A stretch of DNA of 64,000 nucleotides, from NCBI GenBank assembly GCA_049599475.1, contig JBMYOQ010000003.1, forward strand, positions 1 to 64,000, given 5' to 3'. This document shows positions 6,370 to 51,392 of this stretch, one piece after another. A program made the position numbers and the translations under genes. The notes under the pieces are model-generated. The model was not told where the DNA came from and ran no database searches. It worked only from the letters and a program-made list of their open reading frames with translations. Positions within the stretch are counted from its first letter, which is position 1, and the number at the start of each line of letters is the position of its first letter. The stretch is from Opitutales bacterium (GTDB taxonomy: Bacteria > Verrucomicrobiota > Verrucomicrobiia > Opitutales > JABSRG01).

Positions 6370-6490
6370 GGTAGCGCCGGATCACTGAGCCGGCATGGGC
6401 GCAGCAGCCTTAGCAACCTAAGAGGCTAAAGCCGAGTCATGCTCGTTCGCAGCTTGGTTCAGGCGGTCGCCGGGGACGGCGTCCCTCCAG
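6370..6490. repeat. Composite REP/REPIN-like element (GTAG-type arm plus GGAG-type arm)
   Basis: ggtagcgccggatcactgagccggcatg matches the reverse complement of the 19010 end. It ends in cgccggggacggcgtccctccag. Confidence 0.75.
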
Positions 6491-6533: not shown

Positions 6534-7766
6534 TTACATAAACGCCGGCGCTATAATATCCGCAAAGATGTCGAACGGCGCTTTCCGACCAGCTTTACGA
6601 TTGTTTGAGGTAAACACCGCAACCAAATCGAGGTCGGGTCGAATGAAAATGAATTGGCCTTTGGCACCACGGCCTGAAATCACGTAGGGGTCTTTCGCGT
6701 ATTCTTCGACGCCAGTCGACCACCATAGGTATCCGTAGCCGCCCATGTGTTTTGAATAGTGATACACTCCGGTCATTGCTTTAACATAATCTTCAGAAAG
6801 AATTCGCTGGCCGTTGAAGGTGCCACCCTGAGCGACCATTAGGCCAATCTTCATCATATCTCGAGAACGCAAGTCGAGGCCCGCGCCAACGCTGTGTACC
6901 TTGGACCCGCCACGCTTTTGCCATTTGTATTTCTCGATTCCTAGATCTTTAAAAAGCGTTTCGTCGGCGTAGTCTGTGAGACTTTTCCCTGTCACCGCAC
7001 AAATCAACATGCCGAGCATTTGCGTATTGACATTTCCATACTGAAATCGAGTGCCCACGCCATCGCCAGACGCGTGCAGTAACAGTGAAGACACTTCTGC
7101 TTGGAGCCCTTTGCCCGAAATCTTTGGTTTCTCCGCGCGACCGTCTTTGACCAATCCACTCCGCGAACTCAGCACATCATGCACCTTGATCGTCGCGACA
7201 GCGGGATCGACATCTTCCGCTCGGATCCATGGAAAGTATTTAATCAATGGATCGTTGAGATCTTCGATTAAGCCCGCATCAAAGGCGTAACCTGCAAGAC
7301 ACGCGGTCACACTCTTCGTAATTGACATCAGGGTATGCGGCTCATCGATATGCCCTCCATGGTAGTAGTCTTCAAACAAAAGCTTCCCGCCATGAGCGAT
7401 GAGAATACTATCAATTTTCTTCCACTCGCCTGCCGCAGTGCGTCTGGCCATATCCATGAGCTTCACAAAATCTGCAGAGCTTGATTCCAAGGACGCAATT
7501 TGCAGGCCATCACCGAGATCCGCCGGCATTGCATATACGGAATGATCGCGCTCTGGGGCTCTTACCTTCGAGTCCCCTTGATCCGCCGCTGCGGCTTCAT
7601 CGTTGAAAGCGGTGCCGTCAGTTTGGGCGTGGGTGAGAGTTGTGAGTGCCAGACAAGCAACCAAGGGTAACGGTTTTTCTACGAACGGCCGAATCAGGCT
7701 CATTCTCTGTTCCGTAATCGCGTTTCCGATCGCTCGGAGAGCGGAGGCTACCTTATTGCAGTTCAT
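6534..7766 (-). CDS. Beta-lactamase-related (class C/AmpC-fold) serine hydrolase, possible carbohydrate esterase
   Basis: SxxK (SITK), YGN, GLDLRSRDMMKIG, YGYLWW, GRGAKGQ. Start overlaps upstream stop (TAATG). Confidence 0.85.
   Translation of the reverse strand: MNCNKVASALRAIGNAITEQRMSLIRPFVEKPLPLVACLALTTLTHAQTDGTAFNDEAAAADQGDSKVRAPERDHSVYAMPADLGDGLQIASLESSSADFVKLMDMARRTAAGEWKKIDSILIAHGGKLLFEDYYHGGHIDEPHTLMSITKSVTACLAGYAFDAGLIEDLNDPLIKYFPWIRAEDVDPAVATIKVHDVLSSRSGLVKDGRAEKPKISGKGLQAEVSSLLLHASGDGVGTRFQYGNVNTQMLGMLICAVTGKSLTDYADETLFKDLGIEKYKWQKRGGSKVHSVGAGLDLRSRDMMKIGLMVAQGGTFNGQRILSEDYVKAMTGVYHYSKHMGGYGYLWWSTGVEEYAKDPYVISGRGAKGQFIFIRPDLDLVAVFTSNNRKAGRKAPFDIFADIIAPAFM
7666..7752. repeat. Degenerate 87-bp REPIN-like element inside the 5' coding region of the serine hydrolase
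   Basis: Inverted ends ggtaac.../...gctacc. Internal hairpin CGCTC-TCC-GAGCG on the minus strand. Same 87-bp length as the intergenic copies. Confidence 0.6.
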
Positions 7767-9325
7767 TATTTACTTTCAATTTCGAGGGTTTCAGGGGTAT
7801 TGATAATTTGCGCTTGAGAAGCATCGCCGTATGCTACGATCCCTTCAGATGCCTGCCCGACGAACTCCAGCCAGGTCATCGAAGCAGGCCAGTTGATATC
7901 GAGCTGTGCGTTACTTAAACCGTTTGCTTGGATCCAAGACGGCGTAGTTTCAGGTGCACTGATTTCTACATTTTCTAAAATCAATCCGTCCACATTTTCA
8001 AAATACGCCATGTGCGCCTTGCTTTTGCTCACACCTGTAAAACGGACGTCCTTCAAAGTAATATCATTTGCATGACGCGCAAAGAGTCCCCAGGCATTGA
8101 GCGTTCTGAACATGCGGCTCTGCGGATAATCTTGAGTATTCTCGCCGACCTTACGACTCGCCCGAGGACTATTTTTCTTACCTCCTGGTTCAGCAGCAAA
8201 AGTGACATCGATATTTTCAAGACTCACACCTTCGATCGAACGATCCTCGCTGCCAACCAACATAAGCGCCCATTTCGAGCCAGTGGCGTTTACATTACGA
8301 ATAGTGATATTTTTCGCCGAGCCAATCGCTAGTTCCCTGGTATCTCCTGATATTTTACGTAGACGATTCCCGAGGATTACCGAGATGGGACATGAACTAT
8401 CGGTTATAGTTACATCCTCGATTAATACATTTTCGATCTTCGCTCCGTCCGAGCTATAAAGGGCTATGGCATCGCGGCCTCCAATGATTTCCAAATTGCG
8501 CGCCGTGACGTTTATGAAGCCTGAGTAAGACTCGGTGCCGAATTTGAAGGCAGACTTTACGCTATTGAGGCGTGAATTGGTGACCGTAATATTTTCGCTC
8601 GGCGCATGAGACGTGTTTTTGAGGGTAATCGCGTCGTCGTGGGACGTGATATCGCAATTATCGACGAGCACATTGCGGCTACCGTCAATATTGAGACCGT
8701 CGTCATTTTTCATATAATTCTTGATCGTCAGTCCAGTGACTTCGACGCCGTCGCAGAGGAAGAAATGCTGGGTCCACATGGAAGCATTTTGCAGCGTAAG
8801 GTCGCGCACTTCGACGCCTTTACAGCCATCCAGACGGATCAAAGAAACGCGGGCCGACTCCGATGAACGCGCTTTGTAGGCGCTGCTCTTTCCATCGATA
8901 GTCCCCTCGCCTAAGATGGCCACATTCTCTGCATTTTGAGCGTATACCATGGTGCGGCGCTCGGGATAATAAATCAGCACGTCGACCGGGACATAGGGAT
9001 AATCCTCCTTCACCCCCGTATTCATCAGGGTGGCGCCTTCTGCGACCTCGAGGGTAATGTTGCTCTTGAGCGTAATCATGCCCGAGACCACGGTGCCTCC
9101 GTCGAGAATCACGCGCCCTCCACCCGCTGCGGCGGCCTTATCAATCATGGCTTGAATGGCCGCTGCGTTGTTTGTCTGGCCGTCGGCGATGACGCCTTCC
9201 TTGGAAGCAGTGAGGGTGAGGGCCAAGGCAATGGAGGGGGATAATAGCATCGCCCAGCCCACACCCAGGATCCGGCCACTGCGGACAGTCACCCAACCCA
9301 AAATTGTCTGAAACAGTCTAATCAT
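7766..9325 (-). CDS. Glycoside hydrolase family 28 (polygalacturonase-like beta-helix)
   Basis: NAAAIQAMID, SGMITLKSNITL, GEGTIDG, NDDGLNID, HDDAITLK, FKFGTES. Confidence 0.88.
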   Translation of the reverse strand: MIRLFQTILGWVTVRSGRILGVGWAMLLSPSIALALTLTASKEGVIADGQTNNAAAIQAMIDKAAAAGGGRVILDGGTVVSGMITLKSNITLEVAEGATLMNTGVKEDYPYVPVDVLIYYPERRTMVYAQNAENVAILGEGTIDGKSSAYKARSSESARVSLIRLDGCKGVEVRDLTLQNASMWTQHFFLCDGVEVTGLTIKNYMKNDDGLNIDGSRNVLVDNCDITSHDDAITLKNTSHAPSENITVTNSRLNSVKSAFKFGTESYSGFINVTARNLEIIGGRDAIALYSSDGAKIENVLIEDVTITDSSCPISVILGNRLRKISGDTRELAIGSAKNITIRNVNATGSKWALMLVGSEDRSIEGVSLENIDVTFAAEPGGKKNSPRASRKVGENTQDYPQSRMFRTLNAWGLFARHANDITLKDVRFTGVSKSKAHMAYFENVDGLILENVEISAPETTPSWIQANGLSNAQLDINWPASMTWLEFVGQASEGIVAYGDASQAQIINTPETLEIESK

Positions 9326-9329
9326 CGGT

Positions 9330-11420
9330 TTATTCGAAAAACTCTACAAGGGGGTATTCGCCGAGGGCGCTGAGGACATACCAAGAGCTCGTGCCGCCAC
9401 TATCGTTGTTACCCGGAAGCCCGTGTGGGCCCGTTCCGAATTGGTAGCGGAGAACGCCCTCGATGACCTCTTGCTCGCGCTCGGGTTTGTTTGTCCAGCG
9501 GTAGGCGTAAGGCGCCTCCATGTCGCATTCGTTGTTGAGGCCTTCGAAGCGCTCTTCGCGTTTGAGGCGTTTGAACTCGGAGCCGGGATTTGTATTCACA
9601 ATACCCGCAGCGACATCCTCGAAGCCCATGAAGGTCTCGAGTAATTTGGTGAAAGCAGCTTTACCCCCAGCGAGCTCTACGCGCTCGGCCATGCCGTAAT
9701 GCGGGCGGAAGGAGTAATTCCATTTGGTGCCTTCGTAATATTTTTCGTCCTTGAGCAATCCGGTGCTGGGATCGTATGCCTTCTTCCACAATTCCCGCAT
9801 CGGCGCGTATTTTTCAAACGTAGCGGAATCTCCGATACCTTTAGCGATGAAGCAGATACCTGCAAAAGCTGATGTCACATCCAATGTGTGCGAATAAGGA
9901 AGCCCCGCGATACGGCCTGTGTTGATCACCTCCTGCACGCGTTCTTGGGCGGCGAAAGCGTCGGCTTGCTTTAAAATACGGGGCCAGTCAATTCCTGGCA
10001 CGCCGGTGCGGTAGGCATCGGCCAAGACAACCCATTCGATTCCCGTTGCTTGATCGCGGAAACGGTTGAATCCCTTCTCCGTAGTTTTCATGTAGCCGCA
10101 GGGGAACTGCCCGTGCGTTTCCATGGCGAGCATCATGGTCTCGACAATCGGAGTCGCGCGCTCTGGATAATAGCGAAACACGAGCGGGAGTTGTGTTTTA
10201 TAAAGATCCCAAAGTGTCGAGAAATCTGTGACAAACGGAGACTCCTGCCACCAAGGGCTCTCATCCATGCAAATGCTGGGCTTCGTGAGCGAGTGATAAA
10301 GGTTGGAGTAAAACAACTCTTCCTCTCGGGCATCCTTCGCCTCGTAGGGAATGCGCTCGAGGGCCTCTGTCCATTCGGTTTGAGCTGCGGCGAGAGCGGC
10401 ATCAAAATTGGCCGGTGCTTCGGCTAGGTTTTTCTCAGCCTGCTCGAGGGAGCGGAAAGAGAATGCGACTTTGACATTCACCGTCTCGGCGTTGAGGTCC
10501 ATTACGTAGTCGACATAAAAAGGCTTAGGCTTGCGGCGGATTTTATTCGCCAGCATTTCTCCCTGCGAATCGGACACTTTGATCTTCGGATCGCCGTCGC
10601 CATAATAAGCACCCTCGCCGCCTCCAGAGACTTCTAGGACGTAATAATACGGAAAGCCCTCGTCCTGAAACATGCCACCGATGCGGCCGGGCCCCATCTC
10701 TTTCGAGCTCAAATAGTGCACTTTTTCCCGCTCATTGCCGATGCCCCCCGAGGTGAGCTCAATGAGCAGTTTGGGATCCGCAAACCCTGCAGGGAGCGTG
10801 TAGCGGTGATAGGCAACCTTATTGGAAGTCGTGATCTCCGCGCTGACCCCGGAGTCGCTGAAGGTCGCTGCGTAATAACCGGGCGAGGCCTTGATACCGC
10901 TGAGCTTGTGCAGCTTTTCACGATTGTCTTTAGAATATCCTGACAAAGGCATGACTCTCAGGAAATTATAGTAACTGAGAATGGCCCCGGTTCCCGACTG
11001 CTGAAAATGGGTAAATCCGAAGGCTGCATCGCGCAGCTTTTCTTGATATTTTGCCGGTCCCGCGGTGGTCTTTTTATTATAACCGGCACCCGTTGGATAG
11101 GCCTTGGTGTAAGGCACTACGGATACCATGCCAAAGGGCAATTGCGGCCCGGGGTGCGTATTGCCGGTTTGTGCCTTTTCCCAATTCCAGGCAGCGGCAA
11201 TGCCTTGTGGCGGCGGGAGATCCACACCCGCTTGACCATAAAAGACGTCGACTGAATCGAGGATATTGGCCGAGGCGATGGAAGTGGCGAGGACGGCCGG
11301 AAGTATCCTTTGTAAAACGGATGCTCGGCTGACGCGCTTATGCCGACTCGGTGAGCCAGCGCTACCATTTTGATACACGCTAGGGACGGCATCTCTCAGT
11401 TTTGATAATGAAAATAGCAT
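9330..11420 (-). CDS. Glycoside hydrolase family 92 (alpha-mannosidase-like), short C-terminus
   Basis: GNTHPGPQLPFGMV, GFTHFQQSGTG, ASPGYY, LWDLYKTQLPL, YYEGTKWNYSF, GLPGNNDSGGTSSWYVLSALG. Confidence 0.88.
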   Translation of the reverse strand: MLFSLSKLRDAVPSVYQNGSAGSPSRHKRVSRASVLQRILPAVLATSIASANILDSVDVFYGQAGVDLPPPQGIAAAWNWEKAQTGNTHPGPQLPFGMVSVVPYTKAYPTGAGYNKKTTAGPAKYQEKLRDAAFGFTHFQQSGTGAILSYYNFLRVMPLSGYSKDNREKLHKLSGIKASPGYYAATFSDSGVSAEITTSNKVAYHRYTLPAGFADPKLLIELTSGGIGNEREKVHYLSSKEMGPGRIGGMFQDEGFPYYYVLEVSGGGEGAYYGDGDPKIKVSDSQGEMLANKIRRKPKPFYVDYVMDLNAETVNVKVAFSFRSLEQAEKNLAEAPANFDAALAAAQTEWTEALERIPYEAKDAREEELFYSNLYHSLTKPSICMDESPWWQESPFVTDFSTLWDLYKTQLPLVFRYYPERATPIVETMMLAMETHGQFPCGYMKTTEKGFNRFRDQATGIEWVVLADAYRTGVPGIDWPRILKQADAFAAQERVQEVINTGRIAGLPYSHTLDVTSAFAGICFIAKGIGDSATFEKYAPMRELWKKAYDPSTGLLKDEKYYEGTKWNYSFRPHYGMAERVELAGGKAAFTKLLETFMGFEDVAAGIVNTNPGSEFKRLKREERFEGLNNECDMEAPYAYRWTNKPEREQEVIEGVLRYQFGTGPHGLPGNNDSGGTSSWYVLSALGEYPLVEFFE
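11326..11397. repeat. Two REP-derived segments inside the GH92 5' coding region
   Basis: Reverse complement of 11326-11366 matches 18924-18964 at 34/41 nt. 11378-11397 matches 6468-6487 at 16/20 nt. Confidence 0.8.
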
Positions 11421-11430
11421 ATTTGTAATT

Positions 11431-14619
<3,189 letters not shown>

Positions 14620-16565: not shown

Positions 16566-16652
16566 GGTAGAGGCAGACCACTGGGCTGCCATGATTCGGC
16601 AATTGCCGAATTAGCTGACGCGCTGGTGACAACCCAGTGGTCCGTCTATACC
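16566..16652. repeat. 87-bp GTAG-type REPIN-like element
   Basis: ggtagaggcagaccactgggctgcc...gacaacccagtggtccgtctatacc. Spacer catgattcggc...gctgacgcgct is shared with other copies. Confidence 0.8.
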
Positions 16653-16785: not shown

Positions 16786-17793
16786 CTATTCGCTTTGATC
16801 ACGACTTTCAGACTCTGAGCCGGAACGGACCGCGATCACGCCCAGTTTGAGTTTTGTATTATAGTAATCTGTTGCAGTTGGAGGTTTTTCAAAGGATGGC
16901 AAGATGGAGGATTCGGGGCTGCCTAATGAAATCTGGGGTAAGTTCAGTTTCGGAATGTCTGCCGTGCGCTCGCTGAGTCCAATGCCTAGGCTATATGGAG
17001 AGATGCGGTAGCTTTGTGTCGACTCGGACAATAACATTGAAGTCACGACCGGAACTGCTGGGGCACTTGTCGAGTCATCTGAGCGATCATCCACCGTCTC
17101 CGATGGGGCTAAATCTGGATTCTGCGGTGTATCTGGATCTTCTGTGACTGGGTTTTCGGGTTCAGAGGGAGTCTCCGGAGTAGACACTGTTTCGTCTGGG
17201 GTTTCGCCCACACGATCATCGACGAAAGGCGCTGCCGATGAGTAATAAAAGACATTGCCGCTTCCTTCAGGATCCGAGCCGTAAGAGACTTCATATCTCT
17301 CACTGCCGCTTAATCCGCCCTTCTCGTGCGGTGATTCGTTATTCTCTGAATAGATAAGAAAACGAGCGTCCGTCGTCAGCGCGCTGGCTCCGGCATTGTT
17401 GATGAAGCTGCCTGCGTCGGCTACCAATGTGATATTATTTCCACTACCTGAGGTGACTATTGAAGTGCCCGAAGCCAGAGTCAGGTTGCCTTGCGTGAGG
17501 ATGGTGACGCTGTTTGAAAGCGTGCCGCTGAAGGTCCCGTCGATAGTCAACCCGCCGAATCCATCAACGAGGCTAAATGCCCCGCCCCTACTTACATTGC
17601 CGAGCGTGTTGATACTGTTGGCCGAGTTTTCCAGGGTATAGGTGCCTGAGCCTTGGAGCGTAAGAGTATCCGCTTGAAGGGCTGCTGTCTGCGTGACGGC
17701 GCCGTCTGTAATAAGCAACACATCGGCAGCGGTGCTGATCCCCGAGAGCGATCCTTCTATCACGACGCCGGCGAGCACAGACCGTTTCTCCAC
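16786..17793 (-). pseudogene. C-terminal fragment of a filamentous-hemagglutinin-like beta-helix adhesin
   Basis: G/S/T/L-rich repeats, FINNAGASAL..RFLIYS motif and Pro/Glu linker. No signal peptide or secretion domain. In-frame stop just upstream. Confidence 0.65.
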
Positions 17794-18865
17794 TGATCCT
17801 AGTCAGAATTTCCAAGACCAGGTCGAATACATGGATGTCTTGATCGGCGACCTGCTGACAAAGCTCGACGATCTCAACCTCACAAACTCCACACTCATCT
17901 TCTTCACCTCAGGAGGCGGGGTTGATCCTCAGATTTCGTATAATACACCTTCCGGTCTGCAAGTTGGACACAAGGGCTCCCTCAACAACGCAGCCTATCA
18001 TGCACCCCTGATCGCCTATGGCCCAACGACCATTCCAGCCGGAGTCGTAAACACCGACCTCATCGACACCGCAGACCTCCTTCCCACCTTAATCGCTTTC
18101 GCCAATCAACCCATCGACGCCTCAGCGATCGATGGAATTTCATTTTACCCTCAACTCAAGGGGCAAACTGGCACACCACGCCACGCCATTTACCAAACCT
18201 TCTATCCGGAAGATCCCAGCATGCTCGATACACTCGGCATGCACGCAGGCGATGCGGTTCGCTGGATCCAGAGTAAGGACTACAAACGCTACCTGAACGG
18301 ACCGGACACTTACTTTGACGCCCACGCCCTCCTTTTCGACATTGCTCAAGACCCTTTAGAAGCCTCGGCAATTGACCTCGCTACAGCCGGCAACCAAGAG
18401 CTCGCGACGGAAAGTGCCCTATTCGCCAACCTCGTAGAATGGCCACTCAATGAAAGCTCCCGAATTCTCCAAAACTGGCAGCGCACCCAATTTTCGGAAG
18501 CTCAGTTCATCCTAGGCTACAGCAATAAAACAACCGACTACGACAGCGACACCCTAGACAACTGGAGCGAATTCCTCCTAGGCACCTCTCAGACAAACGG
18601 AAGCGATGCCCCCCTACTCTTTACCATAGATACCCAGACCCACGAAGGCATCATCACCCACAAACGCCGCACCGACCTGCCCGTAGGTTATGCCGTGGAG
18701 CACAGCAATACGCTGGACCTAGGATCATGGAATAACATCACCGCGAGCCTAAATCACGAGTCTACGGTAGATCACTTGGACGGTACAGAGACGGTGATCC
18801 TGCGGACCAGCGGAGCCGTTTCTGGCGAAAGTGCCTTTTACAGGCTAACAGCGAGCGAAGAGTAA
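17790..18865 (+). pseudogene. C-terminal fragment of a sulfatase with C-terminal verrucomicrobial-type domain
   Basis: VEYMDVLIGDLL..LIFFTS, IDTADLLPTL, IDGISFYPQL, LFDIAQDPLE, YAVEHSNTLDLGSW..FYRL. Lacks the N-terminal DD and CxPxR motifs. Confidence 0.7.
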
Positions 18866-18923: not shown

Positions 18924-19010
18924 GGTAGCGCTCGACCACCGGGCGGGCATAAGCGCGTCGGCCGTTGCGACTAAGGCCGAGTCATGCCGGCTCGGTGACC
19001 CGGCGCTACC
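18924..19010. repeat. 87-bp GTAG-type REPIN-like element
   Basis: ggtagcgctcgaccaccgggcgggcat...atgccggctcggtgacccggcgctacc inverted arms between convergent genes. Confidence 0.85.
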
Positions 19011-38448: not shown

Positions 38449-38549
38449 GAGATTAAAGAGATGTGTCTGTCGATTTGCATAAGTAACGCGGCTCACCGAG
38501 AGGGTTCGCCCTAAGTATAATCGAAGAGGAAGTTACATATTCGAAAGCC

Positions 38550-51318: not shown

Positions 51319-51392
51319 AATGGCGCTGCGTTTAGGATGATGTCATCGGTAGCGGCCGCTACCGATGAAATCATCCTAAACTCAGCGCCATT
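51319..51392. repeat. 74-bp near-perfect loopless palindrome
   Basis: aatggcgctgcgtttaggatgatgtcatcggtagcgg|ccgctaccgatgaaatcatcctaaactcagcgccatt, two mismatched pairs. Confidence 0.85.

Follow-up and report, generated by a model that had tools for sequence, protein, structure and literature searches.

Decayed REP and REPIN elements are probably translated within the signal peptides of two genes of a sugar-degrading operon in a marine Opitutales bacterium

Two genes of one sugar-degrading operon in a marine bacterium (Opitutales), encoding a serine hydrolase and a GH92 enzyme, carry palindromic repeats in frame within their leader sequences. In the reading that we prefer, at a probability of about 0.65, these repeats are tolerated and decaying REP passengers that are translated in cleaved leaders and do not act as a control device. 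Both genes lie in the window, a 64,000-nucleotide stretch of DNA (Table 1). The elements themselves are ordinary RAYT-associated REP/REPINs of a family that is expanded in this genome and inserts mostly between genes.

Table 1 Features of the operon and of neighbouring repeats in the window
Feature	Position	Strand	Remarks
Intergenic composite past the hydrolase: truncated GTAG REPIN and GGAG-headed arm	6370..6489	.	
Serine hydrolase, beta-lactamase class C family	6534..7766	-	Pfam PF00144; 410 aa from coupled ATG, leader about 47 aa
Hydrophobic core and c-region of hydrolase signal peptide, codons 35-47	7626..7664	-	Read from sequence; aligns with orthologue signal peptides
Decayed 87-bp GTAG REPIN, in frame, codons 5/6-34 of hydrolase leader	7666..7752	-	
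ATG within REPIN, hydrolase codon 22, possible alternative start	7701..7703	-	
ATG in TAATG overlap with GH28 stop, likely native hydrolase start	7764..7766	-	
GH28 gene, between hydrolase and GH92	7766..9325	-	Pfam PF00295
GH92 gene	9330..11420	-	PF17678 and PF07971; 696 aa, ATG 10 nt past GH2 stop, leader about 51 aa
Left half of GTAG REPIN (model positions 1-47 of 96), GH92 codons 19-34	11321..11366	-	29.9 bits
Weak match to conserved flank preceding many REPINs of this subfamily	11368..11381	-	11.0 bits; threshold 12
Decayed arm of second, GGAG-headed REP family, GH92 codons 8-15	11377..11397	-	
GH2 beta-galactosidase-like gene, upstream in operon	11431..14532	-	Ordinary leader
Intergenic REPIN, 5′ arm of RAYT-flanking type	16566..16652	.	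24/26 to RAYT-flanking REP; fold z -5.57
Intergenic REPIN, subfamily of GH92 half-element	18924..19010	.	66.2 bits; fold z -3.94

A REP/REPIN family expanded in the genome

Scanning the whole genome with an HMM and an arm matrix revealed about 414 GTAG/GGAG-type REP/REPIN elements, nearly all intergenic, as the first-pass annotation expected of REPs in general. Coding sequence makes up 86% of the genome; 12 of the 414 elements lie more than half inside a called CDS, and about 1% are in genes. The reversed genome yielded no full-length HMM hits of at least 12 bits, and a pattern search returned 137 matches compared with 0 for the control; the same REP pattern had 0 matches in the 6 family genomes searched. 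Sixteen mid-gene single-arm matrix hits were discarded as noise, their number being that expected from the reversed-genome control. The GTAG-headed repeat is an imperfect palindrome with a 26-nt arm consensus that starts GGTAG, and inverted arms separated by a spacer form 118 paired elements of 64–120 bp, with an intergenic class of 87 bp as the commonest length (34 of 116 distinct pairs). Both intergenic elements singled out by the first-pass annotation indeed measure 87 bp and yield the quoted peptides, each in one open frame. The annotation held this combination to be noteworthy, but it is what the family (through its modal length) and chance would give, with at least one open frame in 92% of real elements and 95% of shuffled ones. 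In the proposed check for lengths divisible by 3, 56 of 116 distinct pairs qualified, a number driven by the one 87-bp subfamily, which is intergenic.

A RAYT gene, which the annotation had suggested looking for, is present in the genome: L009 reaches 93 bits on NF047646 (cut-off 80) and has identical inverted REPs on either side, and a second RAYT-like candidate, L003, scores 79.6 on the same model. The RAYT-flanking REP is identical to the 5′ arm of the 16566 element at 24 of 26 positions and to the two in-gene arms at only 15 of 26, and a RAYT is the presumed mobilizer of the in-gene subfamilies. Elsewhere in the genome, a REP is read as protein in an Hsp70-like protein, where it forms a loop insertion of ~9 residues relative to the 7 homologues shown. 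A profile of REPIN-encoded peptides (16 sequences, 32 positions) searched against 1.84 billion representatives gave 9 hits, mostly multi-stretch matches that carried no information on the family.

Repeat insertions in the hydrolase and GH92 leaders

The 5′ arms of both in-gene elements score 28–33 bits on the arm matrix. In the hydrolase, the diverged 87-bp element reported before the hydrophobic core proved to be a true family member, with 32.7 bits for its 5′ arm, 25.5 bits across positions 2–87 of the full-length HMM and 56 of 87 positions identical to the consensus built from 25 intergenic copies of 87 bp; the frame in which it is read is free of stops in 29 of 32 copies. The hydrolase ATG is coupled to the upstream stop as described, and the gene has a further ATG at codon 22, within the element, and a TTG at codon 35, just past it. 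The closest hydrolase orthologues have 380–392 aa at 62–76% identity; without the REPIN the leader would measure 18 aa, compared with 24 aa in those orthologues, a mismatch that counts against the preferred reading.

The GH92 insert is more complex. Its half REPIN encodes GSAGSPSRH and matches its best genomic copy at 37 of 41 positions. The peptide and the 34/41 identity of the original description both hold, but they belong to different arms: 34/41 refers to the + strand arm of the 18924 element, whereas the arm encoding the identical peptide gives 27/41. The insert was also taken for a half-element only, and it is larger, including an overlooked GGAG-type arm with 17/21 identity to a genomic copy, a value of 17 that is reached by 1 of 2,788 gene starts. 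The same two REP families make up the intergenic composite past the hydrolase. Between the two GH92 arms, the match at 11368–11381 falls below the 12 bits used for listing conserved REPIN flanks (22 listed) and is suggestive only as such a flank. Consistent with the annotation, the stretch from the half-element to the mature domain of GH92 has no in-frame ATG, GTG or TTG and contains only ATA at codon 39 and ATC at codons 48 and 53. Full-leader GH92 orthologues have 668–673 aa, and subtracting about 26 repeat-derived codons from 696 aa leaves 670, the length of orthologue P0002. The hydrolase and GH92 genes had been called consecutive, but the GH28 gene sits between them; its leader exceeds the L042 counterpart by about 14 aa, and two tests for a repeat origin of this extension were not significant (14/21; 190 of 1,200 null).

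Empty alleles and translation of the repeats

The proposed search for empty alleles in orthologues was successful. A syntenic GH2–GH92–GH28–hydrolase operon in L042, at 70–75% nucleotide identity, is without any REP arm, and the hydrolase REPIN is missing in L041, L042 and L043. In L042 and L041 the hydrolase orthologue starts at an ATGA overlap with the GH28 stop, in the same position as in the window. Because these alleles are empty at a same-position start, we place the REPIN insertion after the coupled hydrolase start. As L042 lacks both inserts and has the same coupled hydrolase start, comparative sequence evidence makes it very probable that the repeats are translated within the cleaved leader. 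Close orthologues were not found in GTDB among 61 relatives, 7 family genomes and 401 order genomes, and a genome-contig scan for them reached at best 51–52%. Contigs of run X1 cover the region in one piece and run X2 gives short identical pieces, with 11321–11364 covered by a run X2 contig with no differences; no empty allele was seen in the contigs of either run. Leaders are unrelated in orthologues whose mature parts share 94% identity.

In both genes, codon 1 has a better start context than the other candidates, with percentiles of 0.71 for the coupled hydrolase ATG, 0.05 for ATG22 and 0.42 for TTG35, and of 0.49 for GH92 codon 1, 0.16 for GTG15 and 0.21 for ATA39, in a context model that is weak because Shine-Dalgarno sequences are rare here (AGGA or GGAG in about 5% of 1,252 starts). 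By inspection, the two leaders (net charge +3 and +6) have the positive n-region, hydrophobic core and small-residue cleavage motif of a Sec signal peptide with an extended n-region, and their cores and c-regions align with orthologue leaders. Both genes look alive: their frames are intact, dN is 0.16–0.20 against L042 with synonymous sites saturated, and relative-rate tests found them no faster than orthologues in 6 of 6 comparisons.

Decay of the inserted elements

The hydrolase copy keeps the REPIN layout and the GH92 copy is half-lost, and in both the stable hairpin is gone. Differences of the hydrolase REPIN from the consensus fall on codon positions 1, 2 and 3 in the numbers 11, 10 and 10, and a frame still open after 31 random changes has a probability of 0.55. 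Selection against the hairpin is not supported, since the folding energy (-24.3) matches that expected under random decay (-22.1 ± 5.2). The inserts thus appear to decay neutrally, without constraint on amino acids or hairpin.

Alternative explanations

The first-pass annotation had proposed that signal peptides are a target of the family, where it would place a stable hairpin past the start codon and could tune translation, processing or enzyme stoichiometry, a reading that we consider very improbable. In its favour, a search of 662 stop-coupled genes over their initial 180 nt found 3 strong arms, all of which precede a hydrophobic core, with 0 in mid-gene windows; REP-like peptides recur in the same operon of other lineages, as judged from protein sequences; and a short local stem is still predicted for each in-gene 5′ arm. 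The corresponding signal-peptide enrichment is not significant (Fisher p = 0.6; 3 cases, of which 2 are the discovery cases) and was obtained with a crude heuristic that over-calls signal peptides (303 of 662 stop-coupled genes) and mislabelled GH92 as lacking one. Only 3 of 414 elements are located in a leader, and in 78 element–gene pairs the frame of the gene runs through the element without a stop in 12 cases, compared with 20 and 16 for the two control frames. The in-gene copies fold like shuffled sequences (z of -0.82 and -0.01, compared with -3.94 to -8.14 for intergenic copies), and arm complementarity in the hydrolase REPIN has fallen to 13/24 compared with 17–22 in 25 members. Over their first 105 nt, neither of the two mRNAs stands out from 683 coupled genes. 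At the hydrolase site an intact copy would exceed the 5′ ends of all these 683 genes in stability, whereas the real copy lies near the median, and one lineage (L042) has the operon without any REP. With stable hairpins lost from the in-gene copies, a tuning role is unsupported; the milder proposal, that the family is tolerated in cleavable signal-peptide n-regions, is supported.

Two further readings place the start codons elsewhere. The hydrolase might now start at ATG22 inside the REPIN, a rescue start from which the right arm alone would be translated, giving a signal peptide of normal length (26 aa) with this arm as its n-region, with perhaps a similar event at C62. This codon is absent from all 25 intergenic copies (ATA in 20) and its use would give a protein of 389 aa, near the 387–388 aa of the closest orthologues; at C62, a start at a TTG in the right flank would yield a normal leader and has the best context (0.76 compared with 0.05–0.13), and two paralogues have short normal leaders. 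We nevertheless regard a start at ATG22 as unlikely, given its poor context relative to the good coupled ATG, a single ATA-to-ATG change that could be chance among 31 differences, and the failure of such a rescue to account for GH92, which has no downstream start. It is also quite improbable that the elements are extragenic or the genes dead, with the native start destroyed or the spacer struck and the upstream ATGs being artefacts of gene calling. Di Nocera et al. do suspect misannotation of N-terminal REPs in Opitutus terrae (PMC3733652), other N-terminal overlaps in the present genome have a good downstream Met (for example C23:33317 and window 38476), and openness proves little where random change so often leaves a frame open. 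Against this, the hydrolase ATG overlaps the upstream stop just as in the empty orthologues, GH92 has no canonical downstream start (ATA39 would leave a 13-aa leader without an n-region), and neither gene shows frameshifts or rate acceleration.

Possible recurrence in other lineages

We scored orthologue N-termini with a model-based test against 1,200 null N-termini. The long-called orthologues P0315, P0168 and P0201 match the GGAG-type REP model, with 0, 4 and 16 null N-termini scoring as high, and P0192 is borderline (44); the 12 short-leader orthologues are null-like (86–1,065). Counting against translation of the repeats, most database calls in this second lineage begin at a downstream Met (P0004, P0124, P0196). 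A palindrome test on back-translated orthologue peptides was abandoned as powerless, since its best result was 21 of 300 shuffles and it failed to detect even the elements of the window. Judged from protein sequences, REP-like peptides in matching positions of another lineage suggest repeated landings. We tentatively raise a broader view, which we think possible although doubtful, that n-regions in polysaccharide-utilization operons are recurrent REPIN landing sites, with independent families per lineage, nesting, new start codons and fast signal-peptide turnover.

Discussion

Under the preferred reading of tolerated passengers, rare copies that land just inside genes would persist only if they keep the frame open and add harmless residues, and the n-region of a cleavable signal peptide would be such a permissive place. 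In the hydrolase, comparison with L042 and L041 indicates that an 87-bp REPIN entered five codons past the coupled start in a naturally open frame. In GH92, the composition of the insert points to two or more insertions in succession, which left one arm of GGAG type and one half of a GTAG REPIN, together about 26 codons, in an order that can only be presumed. Ribosomes would begin at the upstream ATGs and produce leaders of 47–51 residues with net positive charge and an intact core, from which signal peptidase would remove the repeat-derived residues. Old REP remnants and fast-changing leaders may then allow the same sites to be struck again in other lineages, as the protein sequences hint.

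The family resembles GTAG REP/REPIN–RAYT systems as described in the parts of two published accounts drawn on here (Bertels and Rainey, PMC3337134; Di Nocera et al. 2013, PMC3733652), sharing GTAG-headed palindromes, spaced inverted pairs that form long hairpins, a REP-flanked RAYT, several spacer lengths and hundreds of mostly extragenic copies. It differs in that the two copies of interest here are intragenic and decayed, one of them reduced to half an element and nested with another REP family. In-gene REPs had been presented as a departure from the extragenic norm, but the latter account already describes in-frame intragenic ('codogenic') GTAG REPs in Opitutus terrae, as singlets and dimers and many in glycoside hydrolases; its listed 70 are mostly internal, and 13 start at residue ≤50 by our count by eye. 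Compared with that in-frame set and its notable N-terminal share, in-gene copies are rare here, and coupled-start orthologues argue for their translation, in signal peptides. Rickettsia palindromic elements are likewise read in frame within functional proteins and, in the sections consulted, are judged neutral or slightly harmful, measure about 150 bp, often lie in mature domains and are nearly half in genes (PMC2229807, PMC10969869), with a CGTC tag (PMC3733652). By contrast, the present elements are GTAG/GGAG-tagged and RAYT-linked, with pairs of 64–120 bp and about 1% in genes, and do not belong to that class. The Yersinia RU-2/YPAl MITE, another small mobile repeat that gives residues to a signal peptide, forms part of the predicted signal peptide of YPO1552 (PMC2229807); in the passage concerned its hydrophobic peptide is proposed to create the signal, whereas in the present case an existing signal with a native core gains a longer n-region from the repeat. 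Beyond these items we found no literature on REPs or REPINs in signal peptides in a search that largely covered journals outside subscription.

A new regulatory system is not indicated. With empty alleles and a stop-coupled start, this case shows N-terminal REPs that are probably translated and not annotation errors, and it suggests that small mobile DNA may find a safe harbour in the cleaved leaders of compact operons. For CAZymes of REP-rich marine bacteria, predicted start codons and secretion can err in both directions. If the recurrent-landing reading is true, genuine protein sequence would often lie behind the N-terminal REPs that are commonly put down to misannotation.

A REPIN family in a genome with a RAYT gene

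The window lies at the start of C3, one of 146 contigs in an assembly of 4.68 Mb; it has a G+C content of 50.5% and is contained in a seawater metagenome run. The source would be a PVC bacterium from the sea, probably a member of Opitutales. Its elements match 125 genomic loci by BLAST, and a 26-nt arm matrix at 16 bits gave 255 matches in the genome versus 7 in its reversed version. Seven subfamily HMMs and two more matrices together yielded 414 merged elements, with no HMM match of at least 12 bits in the reversed genome. Only 12 of the 414 lie mostly inside coding sequences, as called by a purpose-made dicodon gene caller, with coding DNA making up 86% of the genome. The element pattern occurs 137 times here and in none of six other genomes of the same taxonomic family. 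Among 12 Y1_Tnp matches, the RAYT gene that the first-pass annotation had proposed looking for was found: L009 passes the NCBIfam RAYT cut-off, L003 falls narrowly below it, and inverted GGTAG sequences lie on both sides of each. The L009 flanks match the arm of the intergenic REPIN at 16566 at 24 of 26 positions and the two in-gene arms at 15 of 26. This is a REPIN/RAYT system of the kind described in PMC3337134.

In addition to these two short genes, the genome has roughly ten Y1_Tnp ORFs of greater length (open frames of 313–392 aa); three that were inspected lack obvious GTAG flanks, and three tested scored under the RAYT cut-off. Many REPINs of the GH92-type subfamily are enclosed by another short inverted repeat whose flanks are conserved (22 cases listed) and which adjoins GGAG-headed REP arms (for example, C9:13394, C76:3566 and C143:3812); the genome shows BIME-like nesting of three repeat types. 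A 74-nt near-perfect palindrome in the window is built from two flanks that normally border the 87-bp REPIN, and resembles excision scars described in PMC3337134.

Features of the window and of contigs C62 and C132
Feature	Positions	Strand	Remark
GH2 gene	11431-14532	minus	operon member
GH92 gene	9330-11420	minus	operon member
GH28 gene	7766-9325	minus	operon member
Class C serine hydrolase gene	6534-7766	minus	operon member
Half REPIN, GH92 leader	11321-11366
REPIN, hydrolase leader	7666-7752
Intergenic region with two REP families	6370-6489
Intergenic REPIN	16566-16652
Intergenic REPIN	18924-19010
Divergent ORF	16786-17793	minus
Divergent ORF	17693-18865	plus
REP arm of another family	38476-38513
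Palindrome	51319-51392
C62 element	C62:10347-10441
C62 region (L104/L106)	C62:10257-11180
REP arm, Hsp70-like gene (L105/L146)	C132:2965-2997

Repeat-derived DNA in two signal-peptide leaders

The two insert-bearing genes had been described as consecutive; GH28 separates GH92 from the serine hydrolase, so they are not adjacent. Frames are intact in both, dN against the orthologous locus L042 is 0.13 (GH2), 0.20 (GH92), 0.19 (GH28) and 0.16 (hydrolase) with synonymous sites saturated, and the window lineage was significantly faster in none of six relative-rate tests. Together these observations argue against long-dead genes and are compatible with recent silencing.

The hydrolase element aligns gap-free to its subfamily at 56 of 87 positions, below all 25 paired 87-bp copies (69–87), which had been selected for two strong arms, and seventh lowest among 52 near-full-length matches. 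L042 carries the same four genes at 70–75% nucleotide identity with no REP arm in the operon, and thus provides the empty allele sought. There and in L041, a second orthologous locus, the start codon of the hydrolase and the stop of GH28 share nucleotides (ATGA) at the position of TAATG in the window, so that the native start very probably precedes the element. Alternative starts are an ATG at codon 22, within the element, which none of 25 intergenic copies has, and the TTG of codon 35. Start-context ranks are 0.71, 0.05 and 0.42 for codons 1, 22 and 35, from a model trained on 1252 unambiguous starts that is weak because Shine-Dalgarno motifs are rare (about 5% genome-wide). Together with G-poor starts, this rarity indicates that initiation would be mostly SD-independent. 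Whichever hydrolase ATG serves, some repeat-derived codons are predicted to be translated.

The GH92 leader carries model positions 1–47 of a 96-bp REPIN (29.9 bits). Of 42 orientation-copy pairs of this REPIN type, 9 have frame 0 open, and the stop closing the GH92 frame in most copies falls in the missing half. Upstream, codons 8–15 resemble an arm from another REP family, headed by GGAG, with 17 of 21 positions identical, a score attained by 1 of 2788 gene starts; the same two families occur together in an intergenic region of the window. The GH92 ATG lies 10 nt past the GH2 stop (spacer 24 nt in L042), and, as first proposed, there is no canonical start after the element. About 26 codons derive from repeats, and 696 − 26 = 670 aa, the length of the orthologue P0002.

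Two long divergent ORFs, both seemingly lacking N-termini and one of them a sulfatase C-terminal half, are flanked by both intergenic REPINs and are possibly an inversion or deletion junction. Elsewhere in the window, a REP arm close upstream of a 1626-codon ORF is probably extragenic, since a normal Met and leader follow it.

Tolerance, targeting and recurrence

The 87-bp length and stop-free frame noted earlier are accurate, but they do not show selection for coding: among intergenic pairs no length is commoner than 87 bp (34 of 116 distinct pairs, and 25 of 32 in the subfamily to which the hydrolase element belongs), and an open frame is present in 92% of real versus 95% of shuffled elements. 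The hydrolase's frame is open in 29 of 32 subfamily copies, so insertion there is tolerable.

Genome-wide, 20 elements reach into an ORF beyond the first codon at which it could start: 8 are N-terminal, 4 include the start, 6 are internal and 2 are at the end. Most of the 8 are followed by a normal Met. In three cases an ATG precedes the element, a hydrophobic core follows it and no ATG intervenes: those of the hydrolase, GH92 and C62, where a right-flank TTG scores better and gives a normal leader. The C62 locus has a fresh composite REPIN (53 bits) with an open frame before the core of a secreted protein, whose ATG is 13 nt past the upstream stop; this protein has no NCBIfam match and two paralogues with short leaders. 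In an Hsp70-like protein, a near-perfect arm of another family forms an in-frame N-terminal-domain loop of about 9 residues, in the mature part, relative to 7 homologues (of 10 loci, 8 were aligned and a motif filter removed 2). Among 78 element-gene pairs there was no excess of gene-frame openness: elements are open in the gene's frame in 12 (control frames, 20 and 16), and as far as an ATG in 6 (4 and 4). Of 662 stop-coupled genes, the same three carry a strong arm within their first 180 nt, against none in mid-gene windows; the arm-in-leader test gave p = 0.6, with a signal predictor that mislabelled GH92 and two of the three being the discovery cases. Leaders are about 2% of coding DNA, and two to three of three to four convincing in-gene copies lie in them. 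The proposal that the family is tolerated in or targeted to signal peptides therefore divides: tolerance is suggested, short of proof, and targeting finds no support in the frame control.

Orthologue clusters contain members with longer gene calls and odd N-termini, which we scored with the REP matrices of this genome converted to peptide form and compared with 1200 null N-termini. Scores as high occurred in 0 null N-termini for P0315 (GH28; a downstream Met also gives a complete leader), 4 for P0168 (GH92; it has both arms in the same frame, the left one a single residue off the window's offset), 16 for P0201 (GH28) and 44 for P0192 (hydrolase), versus 86–1065 for twelve short-leader orthologues. 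The first five residues of P0192 resemble those before the window's hydrolase insert. In trees, the window lies outside a group in which some orthologues are empty and others REP-bearing (GH92 support 94/96, hydrolase 88/96, neither starred). A single old insertion would have to remain recognizable, which is not expected of a neutral insert shared by lineages whose synonymous sites are saturated; these protein sequences, with one long call per cluster, make independent landings appear more likely. The GH92 orthologues P0002 and P0149 have unrelated signal peptides despite 94% identity in the mature part, pointing to fast leader turnover.

The suggested stable hairpin tuning the operon finds no support in folding. 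The hydrolase element (−24.3 kcal/mol, z −0.82) and GH92 composite (−22.4 kcal/mol, z −0.01) are unremarkable beside intergenic copies (z −3.94, −5.57 and −8.14); among 683 coupled genes, 42% and 35%, respectively, have more stable first 105 nt, and with an intact element in its place the hydrolase would be more stable there than any of the 683. Hairpin loss matches random decay and changes are spread evenly across codon positions, so that neither structure nor peptide appears to be maintained in the in-gene copies.

Long n-regions are compatible with Sec export. Di Nocera et al. (PMC3733652) report GTAG REPs in frame within genes, with the largest number in O. terrae, and caution that N-terminal REPs may be misannotated; in Delihas (PMC2229807), a MITE supplies part of a predicted signal peptide, and Rickettsia elements are summarized there and in PMC10969869. 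A keyword search within PMC3116915 yielded no relevant passage, and our search of mainly open-access literature turned up no account of repeated REPIN occurrence in signal peptides. Nothing points to targeting or to a regulatory hairpin, and the repeated hits on leaders are a hint. The in-gene elements are real and in frame, probably translated and cleaved, and most likely neutral; orthologues give good evidence for a single gene pair, and the elements would represent a known element in a little-described niche.
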